A DNA stretch of 39,385 nucleotides from a virus (lineage: Duplodnaviria > Heunggongvirae > Uroviricota > Caudoviricetes), in IMG/VR virus record IMGVR_UViG_2534681978_000021; one strand, 5' to 3'. The notes beneath the pieces are model-generated. The model was given only the letters and a program-made list of their open reading frames with translations. It did no database searches and was not told where the DNA came from. Shown in pieces: positions 209 to 38,099 of the stretch (positions are counted from its first letter, which is position 1; each line of letters opens with the position of its first letter). Both the position numbers and the translations under genes were made by a program.

Positions 209-946
209 TCATTCACTCTCTTTCAAACCAGTTTTAACTGTTTGGGGTTTTGGGTAAGGCTGGACTTTGAATAGCTTTATGTTGAGGCGTTTTCTGGCCC
301 TCTTGTTCAGAAACCGGATGTAACGAAACTGTCGGAACTTATGAACACTGGCTCTGTCGATATTAGCCCTCAGATGTTCACCTCGTTGTCCGCCTCGTTT
401 AATGGCATTCCTGCAAATCTCGTGATACCACTCGCCATCAAGTTCATAGAATGTTGATTCATGGCTGCCTACATAATCAAAATTGCTTGCCTGATACACG
501 ACACCAAGACAGCCACAACGCTCATCTGCAAACGACTGAACCCACTGTACCTGCGGATAAAGCTGTCTGATAAGTTTGAGTGCGTAACTGATGGCCCTTG
601 ATTCGGAGTTTCTCGGCATACAGTCATGCAGCCATAACCGGTTAAGCTCCATATATTCGCGGTTCTGCGTACCGGTTACGACGCGCGCTCCACTGTTTGG
701 ATTAAGGGCATAACCCCATTGCATTACGCCAACCAGCTCTCGTTCTGAAAATATACCCAGATGAAGGTAGGAGTTATTTACGAAACGGTGGCTGTAATGT
801 TTATTGACGATGACCAGTCGGGCCAGCCAGCAACTTATTGTCTCAACCCGTAACTCACGGGAGCCATAACCGACGATATTGTCGTTATAGAGAATAAGTT
901 CAGGCGTGCTGATGATACGGGATGTAACTTGTTTTCTGTTCCCCAC
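209..946 (-). CDS. mom: Mom-like DNA modification protein
   Basis: 245-aa ORF at the prophage end, start overlapped by the upstream com-like ORF exactly as in Mu. Confidence 0.85.
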
Positions 947-5771: not shown

Positions 5772-6293
5772 ATGGAACTAAAAAATATAACCCGTTATTA
5801 TCCTGAAAATATGCCATATGGTAATAATGTTCAGTATTTCCAGAGTGAAGATGGTAAGGATTTCTACGAATCCCTGCCATTATTCACCAAAAAATATAAA
5901 CTTTGCATAACACCTGACAGCGGCGTTATCTGCTCAATATCACAGGACGCCTCGGCGCTGTATCCTGCGGGGTTTTCTGTGGTTGAGGTCGATGAACTCC
6001 CTGAAGGCACGGATATTTCAGGAAACTGGAAGTTTGATAATGGCATAATCTCCCGTATTCCGGTTAACTACGCAAGAAAACTGGAAGCAATGCGCCAGTC
6101 ATATCTTAATCAGGCATATGAAAAAATTAATGACTGGAGAACGGAGCTACAACTGGGCACCATCAGCGATGAAGACAGAGCAGCACTTACCCAATGGATG
6201 GCATACATCAGTCAGGTGAAGAAAATGGAACTACCCGCCATTAAAACAGAAGCTGAATTTAACGCCATTAAATGGCCTGAGCAGCCACAGTAA
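5772..6293 (+). CDS. tail fibre assembly chaperone (Tfa/U-like)
   Basis: 173-aa ORF immediately downstream of the alternative fibre module inside the invertible segment. Confidence 0.75.
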   Translation: MELKNITRYYPENMPYGNNVQYFQSEDGKDFYESLPLFTKKYKLCITPDSGVICSISQDASALYPAGFSVVEVDELPEGTDISGNWKFDNGIISRIPVNYARKLEAMRQSYLNQAYEKINDWRTELQLGTISDEDRAALTQWMAYISQVKKMELPAIKTEAEFNAIKWPEQPQ

Positions 6294-6324
6294 TAAAGAA
6301 GGCCGGAAGGCCTTCTGAATATCA

Positions 6325-7206
6325 TTATATACTTGCAGCCGTCACCCATGCTCCATTTAACAGATACTGCAACGGCCGGTAATACACGCCGCCGACGTTA
6401 TCTGCCGTATTCTTACCGACATCCTGTACTTTAATTCCGGTAAGAACATTGCCGCCCCCCAGATTCAGATCCCAGCTTTCCCATGTTCCGGGCATATGTG
6501 CGGTCACCGACCCCAGTCTTATGGCGGTTACTGTTCCTGATGAGATAGTGATATCCTGCGTCCCGTCAAAGGGAACACCATTAATTGTGTGGGCATTTGC
6601 CAGCCTGTTCGCGGCAACGGCGGTGCCGTCCGATGGCAGGGCATTCGCCGCCCTGTTTACCGTTTCCCGTAAACCGACGTTATCGATAAAAGCCCCTTTA
6701 TCCGGAATGTCTGCGCCGTTCTGCTCCCTGCGCAGGTAACGGTTATCACCTTCGCTTTTGCTGTAAACATCCAGATTATTACGGGCGGTTCCCTTATTCT
6801 CCAGGTCGGCGAGATTCTGATCCTTCGCCAGGGCATTAACGTCACCGGGACCAAGACTGTTTTTTGTGGCAAGCGTCCCCAGACCAAGATAACCACGGGC
6901 CAGACGCTGGGCCTCCGCACCGGCATCAGCAATTTCTTTCAGGTTATTTTTCCGGGAAAAAGCATTCGCAGCGATAATGGCTTTAATGGACAGCGTAAGC
7001 TGGTTTAACTGCGCCTTATCCGGCTGAATACTGGCTTCAGCCAGAATATTCAGCAGTTCGGCCTGGAGAATATTCAGCCAGTCCTGACCAATCCAGCTGA
7101 TACCTTTTTGTCCGTCACCTTCAGTAAACCAGGTGGTGGTATTACTCTGCGCCGGTGCCAGCGCAGGCATATTCGCCACGCCGGAATTATTATCAACATG
7201 AAACAT
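6325..7206 (-). CDS. tail fibre protein (S-like; constant N-terminal part plus currently joined variable C-terminal part)
   Basis: 293 aa; C-terminal third lies inside the invertible segment. Confidence 0.8.
6662..6690. other. gix-like inversion crossover site (fibre-proximal)
   Basis: TTTCCCGTAAACCGACGTTATCGATAAA, inverted copy of the gin-proximal site. Confidence 0.6.
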
Positions 7207-7766
7207 TAAATAGTCTCCTCTTCATGGCTGTTTGCATACACGTAAATAAACGTCTGCCATGCAGGCTTATAACGGTTCAGAATACATTCCAGCGCACCGC
7301 CTTCATAAATACGCAGCGGCGTGAGAATATCATCCAGCACATTCATATTCCGGTAGCCGGTTTCACTGTTAATCGTGACAATACTGACCCACTGTGAATC
7401 CGGTGATGGCTGAATATCTATTTCATAACCAAACTCTGCCGCAAACCGGATATAAAATTCACGGTTAAGAGAGGGTTTCATCCGGTATTTATTCCCGGCA
7501 TAACGCTGACGCTCCTGAATGGTTGCGCCGGTCATATCACATTCCGGTAACCCCAGATAACGCTCCCAGTCTTCCAGCAGCAGACGGGATGAATCAGGAA
7601 AACGTTCTGCCAGCATCTGGTTACCGGTCCAGGAAACACGCTCCGTGGAATGACTGAGGCCCAGGCACAAAGCCGCAAGAACGGATGACGGCCGCTTATC
7701 CCATGCCAGCCCGTCAGGCAGCAACTGCAACAGGGCGCGCTGATGCGGGGTCAGGGTTACAGCCAT
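7206..7766 (-). CDS. tail/baseplate protein (Mu gp48 position)
   Basis: 186-aa ORF between baseplate J-like gene and fibre gene. Confidence 0.6.
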
Positions 7767-28847: not shown

Positions 28848-29270
28848 TCAGAAAAGCCGGGGCTGCGTGCGCTCCTGATGCAGGCGACGCTGGTTGCGGA
28901 TAACGGAGTAAATCTGCGTCTCTGACATCTGGTAATGGCGGCGCAGGGTTTCAATTTTTTCACCCTGGCTCCAGCGGGAAAAAATCTCATTATTGCGCAG
29001 TTCGGTGAAAAGGGATTCACCGACCGGGAGATAATAACCACGCCCGCCCATGTACCCGGCCTGTGCGGCCGCAACCTTACGGGCAAGCATTCCCGCCTGA
29101 GCAGATTCAATCCCCTGACGGTGCAGTTCAGCACTGATCACATCAACCAGGTCACGCAGCGTGCCGGGCCAGTTCTTTTTCAGCTCATCATCAGGAATAT
29201 CATCCAGACGGTCAATCAGCGCGTGCAGCTGTTCGCTGTCACCAAACATGCTCATCTGTGTTTCAGCCAT
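28848..29270 (-). CDS. Mor/C-family transcriptional activator
   Basis: 140 aa with C-terminal HTH (ETQIYSVIRNQRR), between gemA and lys. Confidence 0.7.
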   Translation of the reverse strand: MAETQMSMFGDSEQLHALIDRLDDIPDDELKKNWPGTLRDLVDVISAELHRQGIESAQAGMLARKVAAAQAGYMGGRGYYLPVGESLFTELRNNEIFSRWSQGEKIETLRRHYQMSETQIYSVIRNQRRLHQERTQPRLF

Positions 29271-29340
29271 ACCCGCCTCCGGTCATCATTACACAGGGCA
29301 AGTTTAAAATAAAAATCCCGCGCTGTGGCGGGATTTGGGG

Positions 29341-29850
29341 TTAAAAAGGGGAGGATTCTTCATACAGCCTGCAAACGCGCTCATAACTCATCACTGTACG
29401 CGCTGACATCCCCAGCACATCCAGCATCTTGCGACGGTGCCAGCGTTTGAGACGCTCCAGCACATCCGAGGCCAGTGCGGGGTGTTGCTCCAGCCACTGC
29501 CAGTTAGCCACACCTTCGCCACCGTTCTGCGCGGCCGTCTGCGACTTCACCCAGCGGTTAAGGGCCGTTTCCCCGCCATCAGCGATAAAGCCCTGCCGGT
29601 GCATTACCTTCCAGATGGCGCGAATTTTGGCGGTCACCGTACCCGGTTTTAAGGCCCGGTTAACCGGTTTCTGACGCACTTTAAAACCGCGTTTTTTGAA
29701 AACATCCAGCACGCGGGATAACTCATCCGGTGACATATCCCGGCAACTGGATTTGCCGGTGGCTGCCAGCAGAACGAATGTATAGGTTTCATCATCCAGG
29801 GCAAGCTCGCGCTTTGCCACATGAATGGCGGATATCAGTTTCCCTCTCAT
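29341..29850 (-). CDS. gemA: GemA-like protein (Mu gp16 family)
   Basis: 169 aa, N-terminus MRGKLISAIHVAKRELALDDETY; position upstream of Mor/C. Confidence 0.65.
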   Translation of the reverse strand: MRGKLISAIHVAKRELALDDETYTFVLLAATGKSSCRDMSPDELSRVLDVFKKRGFKVRQKPVNRALKPGTVTAKIRAIWKVMHRQGFIADGGETALNRWVKSQTAAQNGGEGVANWQWLEQHPALASDVLERLKRWHRRKMLDVLGMSARTVMSYERVCRLYEESSPF

Positions 29851-30321: not shown

Positions 30322-30696
30322 CTATTCATTAGCTTTATCCTCCATGCTGGACAGAATCATATGTATTAATGTCGGGCGTGGAGATATACGCATTTCATTA
30401 AGCGTCTGAAGGGCAGCAACAGCAGCCATTTTATCGGTGCCTCTGGCAATTTCTGCAAGAGAATGCACAATCCATAACGGACTTAACGCTACGGCTGAAT
30501 CCAGAATCATGTCATCCATAATAATTTCTGGCACATCCCGTTTGTCACATTCTTTATCCATAAAAGAAACGATTTTTTCCGCATCTTCCGGTTTCATACC
30601 TCCGGCGATAAGAATTTTACGATATTCATAAGACGTTCTTAATTCAATGCTCATATTCATCTCCTGTAACTCTGACAAGGACGTGATTTTTCTCAT
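30322..30696 (-). CDS. hypothetical protein (low-GC cassette)
   Basis: 124-aa ORF, start overlaps upstream ORF stop (ATGA). Confidence 0.5.
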   Translation of the reverse strand: MRKITSLSELQEMNMSIELRTSYEYRKILIAGGMKPEDAEKIVSFMDKECDKRDVPEIIMDDMILDSAVALSPLWIVHSLAEIARGTDKMAAVAALQTLNEMRISPRPTLIHMILSSMEDKANE

Positions 30697-30878
30697 TTAC
30701 GCCTCCCGGAAATACGAATGTATATACCGATGAGAAAATCCATAATAAACAGGAAGAGCGACATCCTGATAAAGAACCAAATGTCAGGCATAATGGACAG
30801 GTTTCCTGTAATCGCAAATATAAAACCAGTCCCCCACACTGGAACGATAATTGCGAAAAATACAAGTCTCTTTATCAT
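30693..30878 (-). CDS. small hydrophobic membrane peptide, two predicted TM helices (low-GC cassette)
   Basis: 61 aa, mostly hydrophobic. Confidence 0.45.
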   Translation of the reverse strand: MIKRLVFFAIIVPVWGTGFIFAITGNLSIMPDIWFFIRMSLFLFIMDFLIGIYIRISGRRK

Positions 30879-31426
30879 GGCGTTAACTCCCGTAATACAG
30901 CGTCCTCGGCGGTCCGTCGACGGTAATAAACAGCGTGAGCAGAATGTTCAGATATGCCAAACTTTTCGCCAATTTCCCGGAATGACAGACGGCGAGGGTA
31001 ATCGGAATCCCGTAGTGCACGTATAAGACGAACATCCTCATCAGATATACGTGTGCCGGGGCGTAACTCACCGCACTTTGTTAATCCGGCACCAATCATT
31101 CCTGCGCGGCACCTGACAGAGTCTTTATTACGTCCGAGATAATCCCCCATTTGCTGGCAGGTCATTGTCCGGGCATTTTTTCGGATAAATTTATCTTCAT
31201 CAGGTGTAAATCGCGGTCGTTTATATTTCAGCAACTCCGGGTATGTACTGCGCAATACGCCAGTCCGGTTATATACGGCCCAGACACTTCTTTTTATTCT
31301 GGCGGCAATATCCTTAACCGGGGTGGAGGAATAAAGCGCAATCAGCAGCGCATCTTCTTCAGGTGTCCACGGGCGGACATGAGCAGGTGCACGACCTTTT
31401 CGCCCCATGGGTTGTAATTTCATCAT
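30875..31426 (-). CDS. hypothetical DNA-binding-like protein with three tandem repeats
   Basis: repeats WTPEEDALLIALY... / FTPDEDKFIRKNA... / ISDEDVRLIRALR... each followed by helix-turn-helix-like sequence. Confidence 0.5.
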   Translation of the reverse strand: MMKLQPMGRKGRAPAHVRPWTPEEDALLIALYSSTPVKDIAARIKRSVWAVYNRTGVLRSTYPELLKYKRPRFTPDEDKFIRKNARTMTCQQMGDYLGRNKDSVRCRAGMIGAGLTKCGELRPGTRISDEDVRLIRALRDSDYPRRLSFREIGEKFGISEHSAHAVYYRRRTAEDAVLRELTP

Positions 31427-31429
31427 GCA

Positions 31430-31945
31430 TCACCCCCTGACTCGCTTTTCAGCAGCATAAAACTCATCAGACAGAATTTCGGTCATTTTCTGATTTGCGG
31501 GTTTTACACCGCACTGAAGATAAATCACATCGTCAACGCAGAACCACTCCACAGGGCCATACAGGATTGCTGAGAAATCAATGCCCAGCCAGAACAACAG
31601 GGCATCGGTTCTGGCATACGTGACGGGCGAATATTCACGCCACAGACTGTTCAGTTCGTCAGAGGCAGTGCGCAGGGCTTTGGGAATGCGCGATGTGCGC
31701 GGCGTGCAGCTCCAGCCATTCGACGCAGTCGGTTTTCGCCATAAGTCGCGATGAAAAGGATATTTGTCCTCCGTAAAACGCAGTCCCTTAAAACAAAAAC
31801 CACTGATACTGAATTCAAATACCGACCGGCACGCAACATTCAGCACGGCCTCAAGGCGTTTCGCCTCATCCTTAACTTTCTGGCAGTCCTGCTGATATTT
31901 TTGCCACGCGGCCAGCGCGGAAGGGTTTGATGTTTTAAAGAACAT
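31430..31945 (-). CDS. hypothetical protein (early semi-essential region)
   Basis: 171-aa ORF in operon. Confidence 0.45.
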   Translation of the reverse strand: MFFKTSNPSALAAWQKYQQDCQKVKDEAKRLEAVLNVACRSVFEFSISGFCFKGLRFTEDKYPFHRDLWRKPTASNGWSCTPRTSRIPKALRTASDELNSLWREYSPVTYARTDALLFWLGIDFSAILYGPVEWFCVDDVIYLQCGVKPANQKMTEILSDEFYAAEKRVRG

Positions 31946-33121: not shown

Positions 33122-33652
33122 TTATTTATTCAGTCCGGCGTCCTGTTCAAAAGGCTCGACATAAAAACTTTCAGCGCCTTTATTCACCTTAATACCGGCA
33201 ATGCCTTTCACTGCATCCGGCTCCGCCAGGACCGCTTCCTTGTTCACTTCCTCTTTCGTGCGGATGAATCGCTCAAGCCCCATACGGCGCAGCATTTCAA
33301 TCACACCTTCCACATCACGGCTGACGCTGCATGATGGATTTCCCAGCCGCCATGACACTGTTCCGGTGGTCAGATTGGCTGTTTTGGTTTTGCCGCCGTT
33401 CGTCAGCTCATCGCGGTTGGTTTTGCACCAGTCCTGAATCCCCTTAAAAAGCACTTTGATTTCTTTTTTAAGGTTTTCAATCTGCGGCGTATAACGGGCG
33501 GTGATTTCTGCCACTTCATCATTCATCGCCGTTTCCAGCCGCAGCGCCTCTCGCTGAATATCGCCCAGGGTACGGATATCGCGGCTGACTTCTTCGCGGG
33601 TCTGCGGTGCGGCCTCGGCTACAGCCTTTAATTTTGTAACGCGTTTTGCCAT
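33122..33652 (-). CDS. gam: Gam host-nuclease inhibitor (Ku-like DNA end-binding protein)
   Basis: 176 aa; LETAMNDEVAEIT, WCKTNRDELTNGGKTKTANL, FIRTKEEVNKEA blocks match Mu Gam as recalled. Confidence 0.9.
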   Translation of the reverse strand: MAKRVTKLKAVAEAAPQTREEVSRDIRTLGDIQREALRLETAMNDEVAEITARYTPQIENLKKEIKVLFKGIQDWCKTNRDELTNGGKTKTANLTTGTVSWRLGNPSCSVSRDVEGVIEMLRRMGLERFIRTKEEVNKEAVLAEPDAVKGIAGIKVNKGAESFYVEPFEQDAGLNK

Positions 33653-34780: not shown

Positions 34781-35008
34781 TTAGCTGATTCGTTTTGCAC
34801 CGATAAAACGACAAATATTGCTGTAAGCTTCTTTCGCACCTTCACGATCAAGTCCTGCCGATATTGCCATTCTGGTGCGATCATTAAATTCAAAAAGTAA
34901 ATCGCCACATTCTTCACTGTCAGACACGGAGACTGCTTTGACGTTATCGAAATTCACCAGGTGAAAGCGTCCGTAAATATCAGGAATATTAAATGCAATC
35001 ATAATCAC
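34781..35008 (-). CDS. small early protein immediately downstream of B (Kil position in Mu)
   Basis: 75 aa; position and size only. Confidence 0.4.
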   Translation of the reverse strand: MIMIAFNIPDIYGRFHLVNFDNVKAVSVSDSEECGDLLFEFNDRTRMAISAGLDREGAKEAYSNICRFIGAKRIS

Positions 35009-35937
35009 ACCTGTGAGAGTAATTCAGGGTTGGTATAAACCTCTTTAAAGGCCGCATTAATATGTTTTTCTGTCAGCGCCGCGCCTTCACCACTGGCGGT
35101 GATCCATGCCTGGTTAAGCGTATGTGTCAGAACACGTAATGCTCCCGGTTTTTCAGCGATAGCCTGCATGACAGCCAGCTCGGCCTCACCACTGATACCC
35201 CACGCCCTGGCAATAGCCAGCACATCCGCCTTTTTGGCCTTGCGAAGTTGTTTTGTACGGGCAAGACGGCTGAACAGGCGCGATAAATCATCAACGGCGC
35301 GGCGCCCCCCCTTAAACAGTCCGCGCGGGTTACCAATAAGCACCATCCCGATCCCCGTGGCGTCCTGGATTGCACGCAGTTGTTCCAGACCGTCAATACC
35401 AAGATGATCCGCCTCATCAACAATCACCAGTCCACGCGTTCCCATCAGGCGACGGCGGATGGCGCGGGATAATGCCCCTTTGTTCGCGCGGGTGTAATCA
35501 ATTCCCAGCTCCTCGGCCAGCTCCAGCAGACACTCCGTGACGCTGGAATGCGCGGGAGACAGGGTTATCATCCAGGTGTTCGGTTGCTCCTGACAGTAAT
35601 TACGGGCCGTGGCCGTTTTACCCACACCCGGTACGCCCACAATGACGTTAATACAGCCCATCAGGCGAACCGCCTGAAACAGCGCGCGCAGCTCCTGGAC
35701 TGTCTGCGTTTCCACAAACTGCGGCGGTTCCGGCAGTGCGCTTTGTTTATTCCAGTTCTCATACCAGGAACGCAGGGAAGCAGCCACAGCGACGTTATCG
35801 CCTTTATATTTCCCCTTGCGGAAAGCCGATAATGTACCGTCGGAAATTCCCGCCTCTCTGGCGATGGCATACTGCGTCAGTACGCCGCCATCAATAAGTT
35901 CATCAATGGTCTTGATTACATCGTTAATATCGGTCAT
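35005..35937 (-). CDS. B: MuB-like ATP-dependent target DNA activator (AAA+)
   Basis: Walker A GVPGVGKT, LVIVDEADHL, KADV..IA...I.GE and GALR blocks collinear with Mu B. Confidence 0.9.
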   Translation of the reverse strand: MTDINDVIKTIDELIDGGVLTQYAIAREAGISDGTLSAFRKGKYKGDNVAVAASLRSWYENWNKQSALPEPPQFVETQTVQELRALFQAVRLMGCINVIVGVPGVGKTATARNYCQEQPNTWMITLSPAHSSVTECLLELAEELGIDYTRANKGALSRAIRRRLMGTRGLVIVDEADHLGIDGLEQLRAIQDATGIGMVLIGNPRGLFKGGRRAVDDLSRLFSRLARTKQLRKAKKADVLAIARAWGISGEAELAVMQAIAEKPGALRVLTHTLNQAWITASGEGAALTEKHINAAFKEVYTNPELLSQV

Positions 35938-36008: not shown

Positions 36009-38099
36009 TCAGGCCAGTGGATCACTTTCTTTTAATTTTGCTTCGAGCAGTTGCAATCCCCGCTGGAAATTACGCTCGTATTCTTCATCAGGTTCATCGT
36101 CAGCGACCGGTTGCTGAACGGTCACCGTATTACCCACAGGGCGGTATATGTTTTCCAGCCATGGCTCCTGCGGCTTGTGCTCCAGCACGTTGACAACCTC
36201 ATCCTCGGCATCACGGATTTTTTCCTCTGCGCGTTTACGCATACCTTTAAGGCGCTGTTGCTGTTTGTAGTATTCCGCGCTGACCGGGAAGGCTTCGCGT
36301 TTATTGCCGTCCCATACCGCCTCGCAAATCACGCTGCCATCCGGGCGACGAACGGTAATTCGTTCGGCATCATGAATGTCATAGCTGATAAGCACCTTGC
36401 GGCCATGCTCATCACGCAGCTCGGGCGCGTAGTAAATATTGTTCAGCCAGCGTATTTCACAGCGTCTTACAGGGCGCTCCACCATCGGCCGGAACATGTC
36501 CCGCAATTCCACATCGGACAGCCATTCAATTTCCGTATCCTCTTCTGCCAGGCGTTTTTTTCTGAACTCCGCCGGGCTGTAATGCTTGCCGTTCGGCTTC
36601 ACCGGTAATTCATCGTGCGGCCGGTTGTTGTACCACTCAACACCGTCACGAATGGCATCAATCAGTTCAGACCAGGACGGTAAATCACGCATCGCTGACT
36701 GCTGCCGGGCGTTCAGCCGTTTGCCCTGTTGCAGGGCAGTAAATGCCGAGCGTAAATCGCGGTTGGTTTTACGTAACGTCTCGCGATCTGCACCTTTCCC
36801 GAAATAGGTGCGGTATCTGCGGGCTATGCGCATCGGTAATGTGCGGTTAAGCCGTTCGATAATGCCCCGTCCCTGCGGGTTACCGGCAATTCCGGTCGGG
36901 TGATTAATCCCCAGTCGCGGCAGTATCCCCACAATCTCTTTATCCAGGATGTCGGCCGTTTCCCCGGAGCCGTTATCCGAGTAATACAGAAACGGTTTGC
37001 CGTGATGGCGAATACCGTGCTGTATGGCGCCGGCTACGGCGAAAACATTTTCAGCCAGGTCAAGGCTCCAGCCCACCACAAAGCGCGTGCCACCGTCGAT
37101 AACAAAGGTCACTTCCGGTGCAAATGGCCGCCCGTGAACCGGGTGCCTGCATTTCAGCTTCATGCCGTGACCGTCACCAATCCAGACATAATTAACCGGC
37201 ATTTTTGACCAGTCGCGGCGCGTGAATCCCTCAAGCTGGCGGTATTCACTGCCGGTCACCCGGCCTTTTTGTTTCACCACTTCCGGCAATTTTTTCATTG
37301 CGCGGCGAATAGTGTCATAAGAGGGCATGATATCGAGCATATAAGGCTCATCAGCGTGCCGGTGCTGCCATTCGGCGACAAAATCCTCGTAAGCCTCGGT
37401 CATTGGTCGGCCGTTTGACTGGCGATACTGCGCCAGAAATTCGGGCAGCCAGTTAATATCTTCGGCTTTTATTTCCTGGCGTTTACCCGGTGCCAGTAAA
37501 AGCAGGCGTTCAGCGGCGTTCTGTGCCTTGTTAAAGGCCGCAATCCAGCGTTTCAGCGTGATTTCACTCAACGCGCGGCGGTTTCCCTTTTTGGCGTTCG
37601 CTGTCTCAACCATTGCCACAATGCGCTCGTCCAGTTGTGAGCGTGACAGACGGTCAACAATAAACCGGATAGCTTTAGCGCAGCTGAAACCGGGTTGTTG
37701 CGCGAATTTCAGCACCTCGCTGACAATCGCGATTCGTGCATCAGCCACCTGGCGCTGGTTTTCAGTCAGGGCATTGAGGCGTTCGACCATCAGTTGTGGT
37801 GAACCGCGATATGCCTCCACCGCATCAACCACGTCAGGTGAGCGTCTGGCCTTTGTCACCACCGGAGCCGGTGATTCGTCGGCTTTTTGCGTCATCAGTT
37901 GCAGGGCGTAGCGTTCACGCAATGCCTGCTGCGTCACTTCAGGTAAACAGTCGATGCTGTATTCAGTTGCTTTAGAGCCTGAGCGACGACGGGAACAACA
38001 GCTTTTCCCTTGTGCGTAACGTTGTAATGCCTGGCGAATACCTTTTGTTGTAGCAGGCATTCCGGGCGCGCCAATCAGTTCTTTTGCAATGACATACAT
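36009..38099 (-). CDS. A: DDE transposase (MuA-like)
   Basis: 696 aa between ner and B; candidate DDE residues in VWIGDGHGM, YYSDNGSGE and downstream E; N-terminal DNA-binding domain. Confidence 0.85.
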   Translation of the reverse strand: MYVIAKELIGAPGMPATTKGIRQALQRYAQGKSCCSRRRSGSKATEYSIDCLPEVTQQALRERYALQLMTQKADESPAPVVTKARRSPDVVDAVEAYRGSPQLMVERLNALTENQRQVADARIAIVSEVLKFAQQPGFSCAKAIRFIVDRLSRSQLDERIVAMVETANAKKGNRRALSEITLKRWIAAFNKAQNAAERLLLLAPGKRQEIKAEDINWLPEFLAQYRQSNGRPMTEAYEDFVAEWQHRHADEPYMLDIMPSYDTIRRAMKKLPEVVKQKGRVTGSEYRQLEGFTRRDWSKMPVNYVWIGDGHGMKLKCRHPVHGRPFAPEVTFVIDGGTRFVVGWSLDLAENVFAVAGAIQHGIRHHGKPFLYYSDNGSGETADILDKEIVGILPRLGINHPTGIAGNPQGRGIIERLNRTLPMRIARRYRTYFGKGADRETLRKTNRDLRSAFTALQQGKRLNARQQSAMRDLPSWSELIDAIRDGVEWYNNRPHDELPVKPNGKHYSPAEFRKKRLAEEDTEIEWLSDVELRDMFRPMVERPVRRCEIRWLNNIYYAPELRDEHGRKVLISYDIHDAERITVRRPDGSVICEAVWDGNKREAFPVSAEYYKQQQRLKGMRKRAEEKIRDAEDEVVNVLEHKPQEPWLENIYRPVGNTVTVQQPVADDEPDEEYERNFQRGLQLLEAKLKESDPLA

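Follow-up and report, generated by a model that had tools for sequence, protein, structure and literature searches.

Among the few early phage DNA-binding proteins that are backed by genetics is D5 of the virulent phage T5 (T5.118, YP_006946.1, 255 aa), where it is essential. RefSeq describes it as a DNA-binding protein which is required for replication and late transcription and is involved in shut-off, and it is regarded as a transcription factor that is implicated both in replication and in suppressing early genes (PMC12630848). According to a 2026 preprint, D5 is a helix-turn-helix (HTH) protein that binds DNA and is toxic by itself, and its binding to the msDNA of a type IX retron triggers that defence (PMC13405049). 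In the PHROGs database D5 falls into family 323, "transcriptional regulator, D5-like" (phrog_323, E 1.2e-71), as does gp9 of the transposable phage Mu (E8, Mup09, 99 aa; E 5.2e-29), a protein encoded in the early region.

Further points of comparison come from outside phages. In c-Myb (R2R3) and the Myb/SANT family (PF00249), tandem repeats of ~50 aa open with W-T-x-E-E-D, adopt a three-helix fold and carry a G-R turn before helix 3. The archaeal proteins Cbp1 and Cbp2 are small and basic and consist of three and two, respectively, imperfect homeodomain-like HTH repeats joined by linkers; both are chromosomal proteins that bind CRISPR repeats (PMC3597662). The repeat features of Myb and Cbp proteins recur in the 183-aa protein described here, which is encoded in a 39,385-nt stretch of DNA that was analysed as a whole (the window). 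By homology, the protein is a shortened relative of T5 D5 and an ordinary member of a known phage family. It links a very common prophage gene of E. coli and Salmonella with the Mu early protein gp9 and with D5.

Genomic context and selection

The window is an E. coli Mu-like prophage with its phage genes on the minus strand. Over 12.4 kb it is 100% identical to strain FORC_069 and to five other chromosomes, and several thousand E. coli genomes carry related prophage copies. The genes and signals that are relevant here are the following.

36009-38099, minus strand: transposase gene A
35005-35937, minus strand: transposase gene B
33122-33652, minus strand: gam
31432..31438, minus strand: Shine-Dalgarno-like GGGGG(T), read from the sequence ~6 nt upstream of the ATG of the D5-like gene; putative ribosome-binding site
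30875..31426, minus strand: ORF of the D5-like three-HTH protein, 183 aa plus stop, with an ATG start and the stop codon at 30875-30877
30693-30878, minus strand: ORF of a 61-aa hydrophobic, membrane-type protein, overlapping the stop codon of the D5-like gene
29341-29850, minus strand: gemA homologue
29313-29336, minus strand: terminator-like hairpin right after gemA, AAATCCCGC-CACAGC-GCGGGATTT then TTATTTT
28848-29270, minus strand: Mor/C-family gene, an ORF separate from the D5-like gene
209-946, minus strand: mom, a DNA-modification gene of the Mom family (259.6 bits with Pfam Mom), located at the prophage's right end

The gene starts 3 nt downstream of the stop codon of the gp12 homologue (31430-31432), its Shine-Dalgarno-like run lies within the 3' end of gp12, and its stop codon overlaps the start of the next ORF as ATGA. 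This arrangement indicates that the gene is translationally coupled and internal to the early operon. No convincing promoter or terminator adjoining it was found in the window sequence, and a search of the window for a second copy of the gene gave none. The next ORF, encoding the 61-aa membrane-type protein, had no PHROG or Pfam match and is not kept beside the gene in other phage contexts. The earlier note on this DNA had placed the gene where Mu-like phages carry variable genes, and this location is correct: it occupies the semi-essential early region from gam to gemA, directly after gp12, a place where phage Mu has only small unrelated ORFs and no gene of this type.

The protein is identical to RefSeq WP_000977064.1, which in the identical prophage carries the name "SANT/Myb-like DNA-binding domain-containing protein". 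Its dN/dS against diverged alleles was 0.05-0.28. Two E. coli allele groups are ~73% identical, and the synonymous divergence of the gene is 0.5-0.7, compared with 0-0.3 in its flanks. In one E. coli Mu-like group (loci L031-L051), gp11, gp12 and gam are 89-100% identical to the window and the D5-like protein is 72-75% identical. Because the synonymous divergence of the gene exceeds that of the flanks, this pattern points to mosaic exchange and not to relaxed constraint. The gene is real and is under purifying selection. Two opposite-strand ORFs (30718-31026 and 31151-31417, both on the plus strand) were considered spurious, since both the selection signature and the homologues belong to the minus-strand frame.

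Modular structure of the protein

The earlier note had proposed that the protein is built of three collinear repeats, each with an HTH-like stretch, and that together these resemble a triplicated SANT/Myb module. The repeat motifs start at W20, F73 and I127, with spacings of 53 and 54 residues, and divide the protein as follows.

31370..31426, minus strand: N-terminal arm, residues 1-19, consensus MxLxPMGxPGxCPAHVRxW; conserved (mean entropy 1.72) and predicted to be disordered
31247..31369, minus strand: R1, residues 20-60, predicted Myb/SANT-like three-helix HTH with invariant W20 (Pfam, AlphaFold2, hhalign and c-Myb alignment)
31091..31210, minus strand: R2, residues 73-112, second predicted Myb-like three-helix HTH, turn motif LGR-x3-[SV]
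31049..31090, minus strand: R2-R3 linker, residues 113-126, motif K-C-G-[DE]...P.T[KR]; mean entropy 1.63
30878..31048, minus strand: R3 and C-terminal helix, residues 127-183, predicted four-helix HTH resembling sigma-70 region 4, AsnC and Xre

When the protein was aligned with itself as a single sequence, only the R1-R2 pair scored marginally better than chance (z 3.3, p ~0.006 against shuffles), and the R1-R3 and R2-R3 alignments did not differ significantly from shuffles. As single-sequence self-alignment was too weak to decide on the repeats, we adopted profile comparisons with column-shuffled controls. With profiles of 11 homologues the R1-R2 pair reached a probability of 97.6% (E 3e-12, 42 columns), and the probabilities for R2-R3 and R1-R3 were 69% and 20%, respectively. 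With 31 more diverse homologues, hhalign related R1 to R2 at 98.8% (E 4e-17, z 28.7), R2 to R3 at 92.3% (E 5.5e-7, z 10.7, 36 columns in register) and R1 to R3 at 86.5% (E 4.6e-6, z 8.8, 20 columns over the HTH core). In this larger set every observed score was above the maximum of the control, which comprised 60 column-shuffled profiles. Self-alignment of the single sequence was therefore weak and confined to R1-R2, but the family profiles were clear for all three pairs. Judged from these comparisons, R1 and R2 are closely related to each other, and R3 is an HTH further removed from both.

AlphaFold2 predicted three successive three-helix bundles and a tenth, C-terminal helix (mean pLDDT 84.6, pTM 0.55), i.e., an HTH bundle in each unit, as the earlier note had supposed. 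In the numbering of the model, which lacks the first Met (ORF residue = model number + 1), the helices span residues 21-31, 36-43 and 47-58 in R1, 74-83, 89-96 and 100-110 in R2, and 128-139, 148-155 and 159-168 in R3, followed by 172-180. Residues 1-14 at the N-terminus are modelled as disordered (pLDDT <50). The N-terminal peptide of residues 1-19 could serve either as an arm reaching into the DNA minor groove or as a short motif for docking to a protein. With a pTM of only 0.55 the inter-domain arrangement is undefined, and the outcome of a whole-chain Foldseek search of the PDB, in which no match was significant and 2lvs was the best, is what such a model would be expected to give.

The assignment of the modules to the Myb type held for two of the three. 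R1 scored 23.6 bits with the Pfam Myb_DNA-binding model PF00249 (cutoff 24.4) and 17.4 bits with PF13921 (cutoff 22.9); both matches were confined to R1, and the protein does not reach the Myb/SANT gathering threshold. The model shows the characteristic three-helix bundle, in which helices 2 and 3 form an HTH. Of the three regularly spaced tryptophans or aromatic residues of Myb repeats, only the first position is kept (W20, and F73 in R2), the others being aliphatic or variable. In a sequence search of the PDB with the family profile, R1-R2 aligned with R2R3 of c-Myb, i.e., with two Myb repeats (E 2.6e-4), and the second-best match was the CRISPR-repeat-binding protein of PDB 2lvs (E 6.4e-4). 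Residues 74-108 also matched phrog_14101. In R3, the Pfam matches (HTH_AsnC-type, HTH_10, HTH_38 and Sigma70_r4) were all below threshold. The only NCBIfam match of the protein, to sigma-70, was also below threshold. A profile of R3 alone retrieved designed HTH proteins, Xre-type regulators, CENP-B and region 4 of sigma-E from the PDB. R1 and R2 are therefore best described, on sequence grounds, as Myb/SANT/GcrA-like, and R3 as a generic HTH resembling sigma region 4 and AsnC. As R1 falls just under the Pfam cutoff and R3 with the C-terminal helix is a generic HTH, "triplicated Myb" overstates the case. The protein thus differs from Myb/SANT proteins in being just sub-threshold, in having only the first canonical tryptophan, in being phage-borne and in its non-Myb third module. 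The fold, the assignment to PHROG 323 and the Myb-like idea are already in public databases, the latter in the RefSeq SANT/Myb name and the PHROGs label "transcriptional regulator, D5-like".

Many homologues are named "AsnC family protein". With HTH_AsnC-type, R3 scored 19.7 bits against a cutoff of 27, and the model is all-helical, with no RAM/ACT-like alpha-beta effector domain. Given the absence of the effector domain these names are misleading, and the annotation "D5-like HTH DNA-binding protein" would be better. A search with the PADLOC anti-phage defence models gave 0 families at E up to 1.

Relationship to T5 D5 and Mu gp9

The protein matched PHROG 323 at E 2.5e-53, with residues 2-182 aligned to positions 80-256 of the 319 in the profile. 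In hhalign the family profile aligned with T5 D5 at a probability of 97.2% (E 2.9e-11, 164 columns), residues 16-182 corresponding to D5 residues 71-252; hmmsearch with the family gave 2e-13 for T5 D5, and BLASTP between the single sequences gave 9e-8 over R1-R2. Structural matches in BFVD included a "D5 protein" of a Vibrio phage. Mu gp9 is homologous to R2-R3 (hhalign 98.3%, E 1.6e-14, 93 columns). Remote homology searches thus supplied the informative relatives that were absent from the earlier note, T5 D5 for all three modules and Mu gp9 for R2-R3.

D5 has three HTH modules in the same order (PWTPEQEAEL..., FTPDEETDF..., then a third HTH), and like D5 the prophage protein would be an early gene product, its timing being predicted from the operon position. 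However, their identity is only ~25%, and D5 has ~70 extra N-terminal residues, so that the prophage protein starts at about D5 residue 71. D5 also lacks the conserved KCG[DE] linker and the N-terminal PAHVR arm of the prophage protein, and it is nearly neutral (pI 6.3), whereas the prophage protein has a pI of 10.1 and its family is uniformly basic (pI 9.2-10.3). Mu gp9 likewise comes from the early region of a transposable phage, but it has two modules only, without R1, and its gene lies upstream of gam, whereas the D5-like gene of the window lies downstream of gp12. Each of the Mu-like loci examined has exactly one D5-like ORF, either of the type found in the window or of the gp9 type, and never both; Mu itself has the gp9 type only.

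The protein is conserved, has a three-HTH architecture, counts T5 D5 and Mu gp9 among its homologues, and occurs in the early operons of two temperate lineages. From homology, fold, charge and gene position we infer that it binds DNA and what its biological role may be. The reading that we prefer, with a probability of roughly 0.55, is that it is an early DNA-binding modulator of transcription and/or replication which acts after induction through its three tandem HTH modules. The strongly basic protein (pI 10.1) would be expressed from the early lytic operon of the Mu-like prophage and would bind double-stranded DNA as a monomer, its modules strung out like beads on a string and placing their third helices in successive major grooves. 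Binding of this kind would let it modulate transcription and/or replication at an early stage after induction. The monomeric contact with several grooves and the regulatory or host-takeover role are likewise what we infer, the latter being modelled on the record of D5, i.e., early-gene shut-off and the support of replication and late transcription. The earlier note's suggestion of a regulator or an anti-host DNA-binding factor does not conflict with the record of D5.

The biochemistry of the two proteins may differ, since D5 has a pI of 6.3 and the family of the prophage protein is basic. Moreover, as T5 is virulent and has a different transcription programme, the function of D5 is carried over to temperate Mu-like and P2-like prophages by analogy. 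If the temperate versions behave like D5, they would become candidates for early shut-off or host takeover in phages of the Mu-like and P2-like groups, and likewise candidate triggers of defence systems. A literature search on Myb-like proteins in Mu-like prophages, on "D5-like" regulators and on the semi-essential region of Mu yielded nothing relevant.

Conservation of the modules among orthologues

Among 31 orthologues helix 3 was the most variable helix of each module, with entropies of 2.25, 2.66 and 2.51 in R1, R2 and R3, respectively, compared with 1.63, 1.86 and 1.02 for helix 1. The most conserved parts were the R2-R3 linker and helices 1 and 2 of R3 (entropy 1.0-1.6; 1.02 and 1.15 for the two R3 helices). 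In the linker, K117 and G119 are invariant (ORF numbering; K116 and G118 in the alignment). R3 is the most conserved part of the family, with the motif DxDVxLIRxLRD...LTFREIGEKF. The variability of helix 3 fits a base specificity that is low or rapidly shifting.

Since the conserved surface is formed by the linker and by helices 1 and 2 of R3 and not by the putative recognition helices, a protein-protein interface is possible as the key function. In its extreme form this would make the protein a SANT-like scaffold that does not bind DNA and docks onto a host protein, for example RNA polymerase or one of the nucleoid proteins, by way of the invariant linker together with helices 1 and 2 of R3. 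The conservation of these parts and of the disordered N-terminal peptide, and the resemblance of R3 to sigma region 4, would suit such a scaffold. We nevertheless regard it as very improbable, given the high positive charge of the family, the homology to the known DNA-binding protein D5, and the retention in every module of the turn and helix-3 signature (LGR-x3-S/V) that is characteristic of Myb repeats in contact with DNA.

The Mor/C-family gene and a possible sequence-specific role

Mu encodes Mor as well as C. The window has a single Mor/C-family gene, an orthologue of C (identity of 40% to Mu C and of 27% to Mor), and no Mor orthologue was found in the window phage or in any Mu-like locus that carries the D5-like gene. 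In addition, the Mor profile (Pfam PF08765) did not match the D5-like protein. The strong terminator-like hairpin at 29313-29336 lies ~40 nt before the Mor/C-family gene.

This arrangement, in which Mu-like loci with the D5-like gene have only a C-like activator behind a terminator-like hairpin, bears on the possibility that the protein acts as a transcription factor with sequence specificity, in the manner of Myb R2R3 or Cbp1. Its three HTHs would then read one asymmetric site of ~12-18 bp at phage or host promoters, and the promoter of the phage's only Mor/C-family gene would be one candidate for such a site, with the protein replacing the missing Mor. The alignment of R1-R2 with c-Myb R2R3 (E 2.6e-4) and with Cbp2 (PDB 2lvs, E 6.4e-4) is in line with this possibility, as are the binding of a specific repeat by Cbp1 with its three imperfect HTH repeats (PMC3597662) and the need for D5 in T5 late transcription. 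The similarity to Cbp proteins is marginal (E 6e-4), and nothing in our analysis links the prophage protein to CRISPR. Across orthologues, moreover, it is the recognition helices that are least conserved, no candidate binding site was identified, and the same cassette occurs in P2-like prophages, whose late-gene control differs. The absence of Mor together with the presence of the D5-like gene comes from essentially one clade, and the correlation is weak because these loci are not independent. Sequence-specific action of this kind is thus a tentative alternative, clearly less probable than the preferred role as an early DNA-binding modulator.

A bolder extension, to which we attach little probability, would make the protein the missing link of the Mor-less cascade, one that switches on the C-type late activator and so echoes the need for D5 in T5 late transcription. 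By analogy with D5, D5-like HTH arrays of temperate phages might be sensed by type IX retrons, and prophage induction might trip this defence.

Distribution of homologues

A scan of viral contigs for relatives of the protein yielded 63 IMG/VR loci, of which 42 were Mu-like and 21 P2-like; the scan of genome contigs gave no confirmed locus. The Mu-like loci share the order gp11-gp12-D5-like gene-...-gemA-Mor/C, and in the P2-like loci the homologue lies between cox and replication gene A. More distant representatives were found in the same two contexts and in one other prophage, in which the homologue is third in an operon diverging from a repressor-like gene. Judged by gene position, the homologues are always in early lytic operons. 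We looked for a conserved partner gene across the Mu-like and P2-like contexts, and the neighbours differ on both sides. The gene is thus a mobile accessory cassette of the early lytic operons of Mu-like and P2-like prophages, and its three-module architecture is kept at full length down to 35% identity in these two phage lineages.

In some P2-like prophages (loci L002-L004, L006, L054-L058), a packed cassette with overlapping codons lies just upstream of replication gene A and comprises a Dam-like D12 methyltransferase, the D5-like protein and, in some, a PAPS-reductase-like protein. A Dam-like D12 methyltransferase directly precedes the homologue, with overlapping codons, in 5/21 P2-like loci. 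A functional tie to DNA methyltransferases was considered and judged to be mostly coincidental, because the adjacency is confined to a minority of loci and because in mycobacteriophages the matching case is an endonuclease inserted in a methylase gene. The annotation of the mycobacteriophage ORFs in question varies from phage to phage between HNH endonuclease and DNA methylase; we read them as an endonuclease inserted into a methyltransferase gene, with the repeat unit serving as the DNA-binding module of the endonuclease.

The methyltransferase neighbours are relevant to the idea of a GcrA-like methylation reader, which would recognise adenine sites (Dam GATC) in the methylated or hemimethylated state and there either recruit RNA polymerase or block it. 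Some repeat relatives of the protein match Pfam GcrA. The protein itself had no match with the GcrA profile (Pfam PF07750) at E up to 10. GcrA (PDB 5yiu) has one DNA-binding domain, with which the prophage modules share the fold only, and a C-terminal sigma-70-interacting domain which they lack. As an adjacent methyltransferase is lacking in all Mu-like loci and in most of the P2-like ones, and the mycobacteriophage association reflects an endonuclease insertion with no functional link, a methylation reader of this type is most unlikely.

The presence of the R1-R2 unit within HNH endonuclease ORFs that interrupt mycobacteriophage methyltransferase genes raises another possibility, namely that the protein derives from a phage homing endonuclease whose nuclease domain has been lost and of which the DNA-binding module persists, domesticated or left over; it would then have either no function of its own or an anti-homing function in site protection. 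Weak matches to HNH PHROGs (phrog_1891 and phrog_6156 for the prophage protein, phrog_8446 for Mu gp9) and a BcepSauron "Endonuclease" among the BFVD matches agree with such an origin. Unlike the homing endonucleases, however, the protein has no nuclease domain, and no nuclease remnant adjoins it. Its three full-length modules are maintained to 35% identity in two lineages with dN/dS well <1, its operon position is fixed with translational coupling to its neighbours, and T5 D5, of the same architecture, is an essential functional protein. We consider a remnant quite improbable, and the role of an early DNA-binding modulator remains the reading that we prefer.

With a cutoff of E 1e-3, an exhaustive profile search returned 9859 cluster representatives. 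The best 150 of these included about two dozen full-length three-module proteins (169-216 aa), and many others were long, with 4-10 matched stretches of the R1-R2 unit. The long multi-repeat relatives pass the Pfam Myb threshold easily (140 bits for P0022), some of them matching GcrA in addition.

Proteins that contain the Myb/GcrA-like R1-R2 unit number in the thousands among metagenomic and bacterial sequences. Long relatives (P0022, P0026, P0029, P0031, P0073; loci L081-L083), many of them of 300-1340 aa, consist almost wholly of ~50-aa tandem repeats with the consensus WTxEEDxxLxxxYxxxxxxEIAxxLGRSxxSVxxRAxxLGL. P0029 lies in an ordinary chromosomal neighbourhood, where it adjoins DXP synthase. 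A prophage that is neither Mu-like nor P2-like (L079) encodes two D5-like paralogues (5842-6648 and 7184-7624), with one gene between them and a Tad2-like gene near. In P0022 the repeat array is fused to an SF2 helicase, and the T5.108 "replication origin binding" protein (L084, 15546-18332), with its SANT/Myb and helicase InterPro domains, resembles this fusion; T5 may thus use the R1-R2 repeat unit in a second protein.
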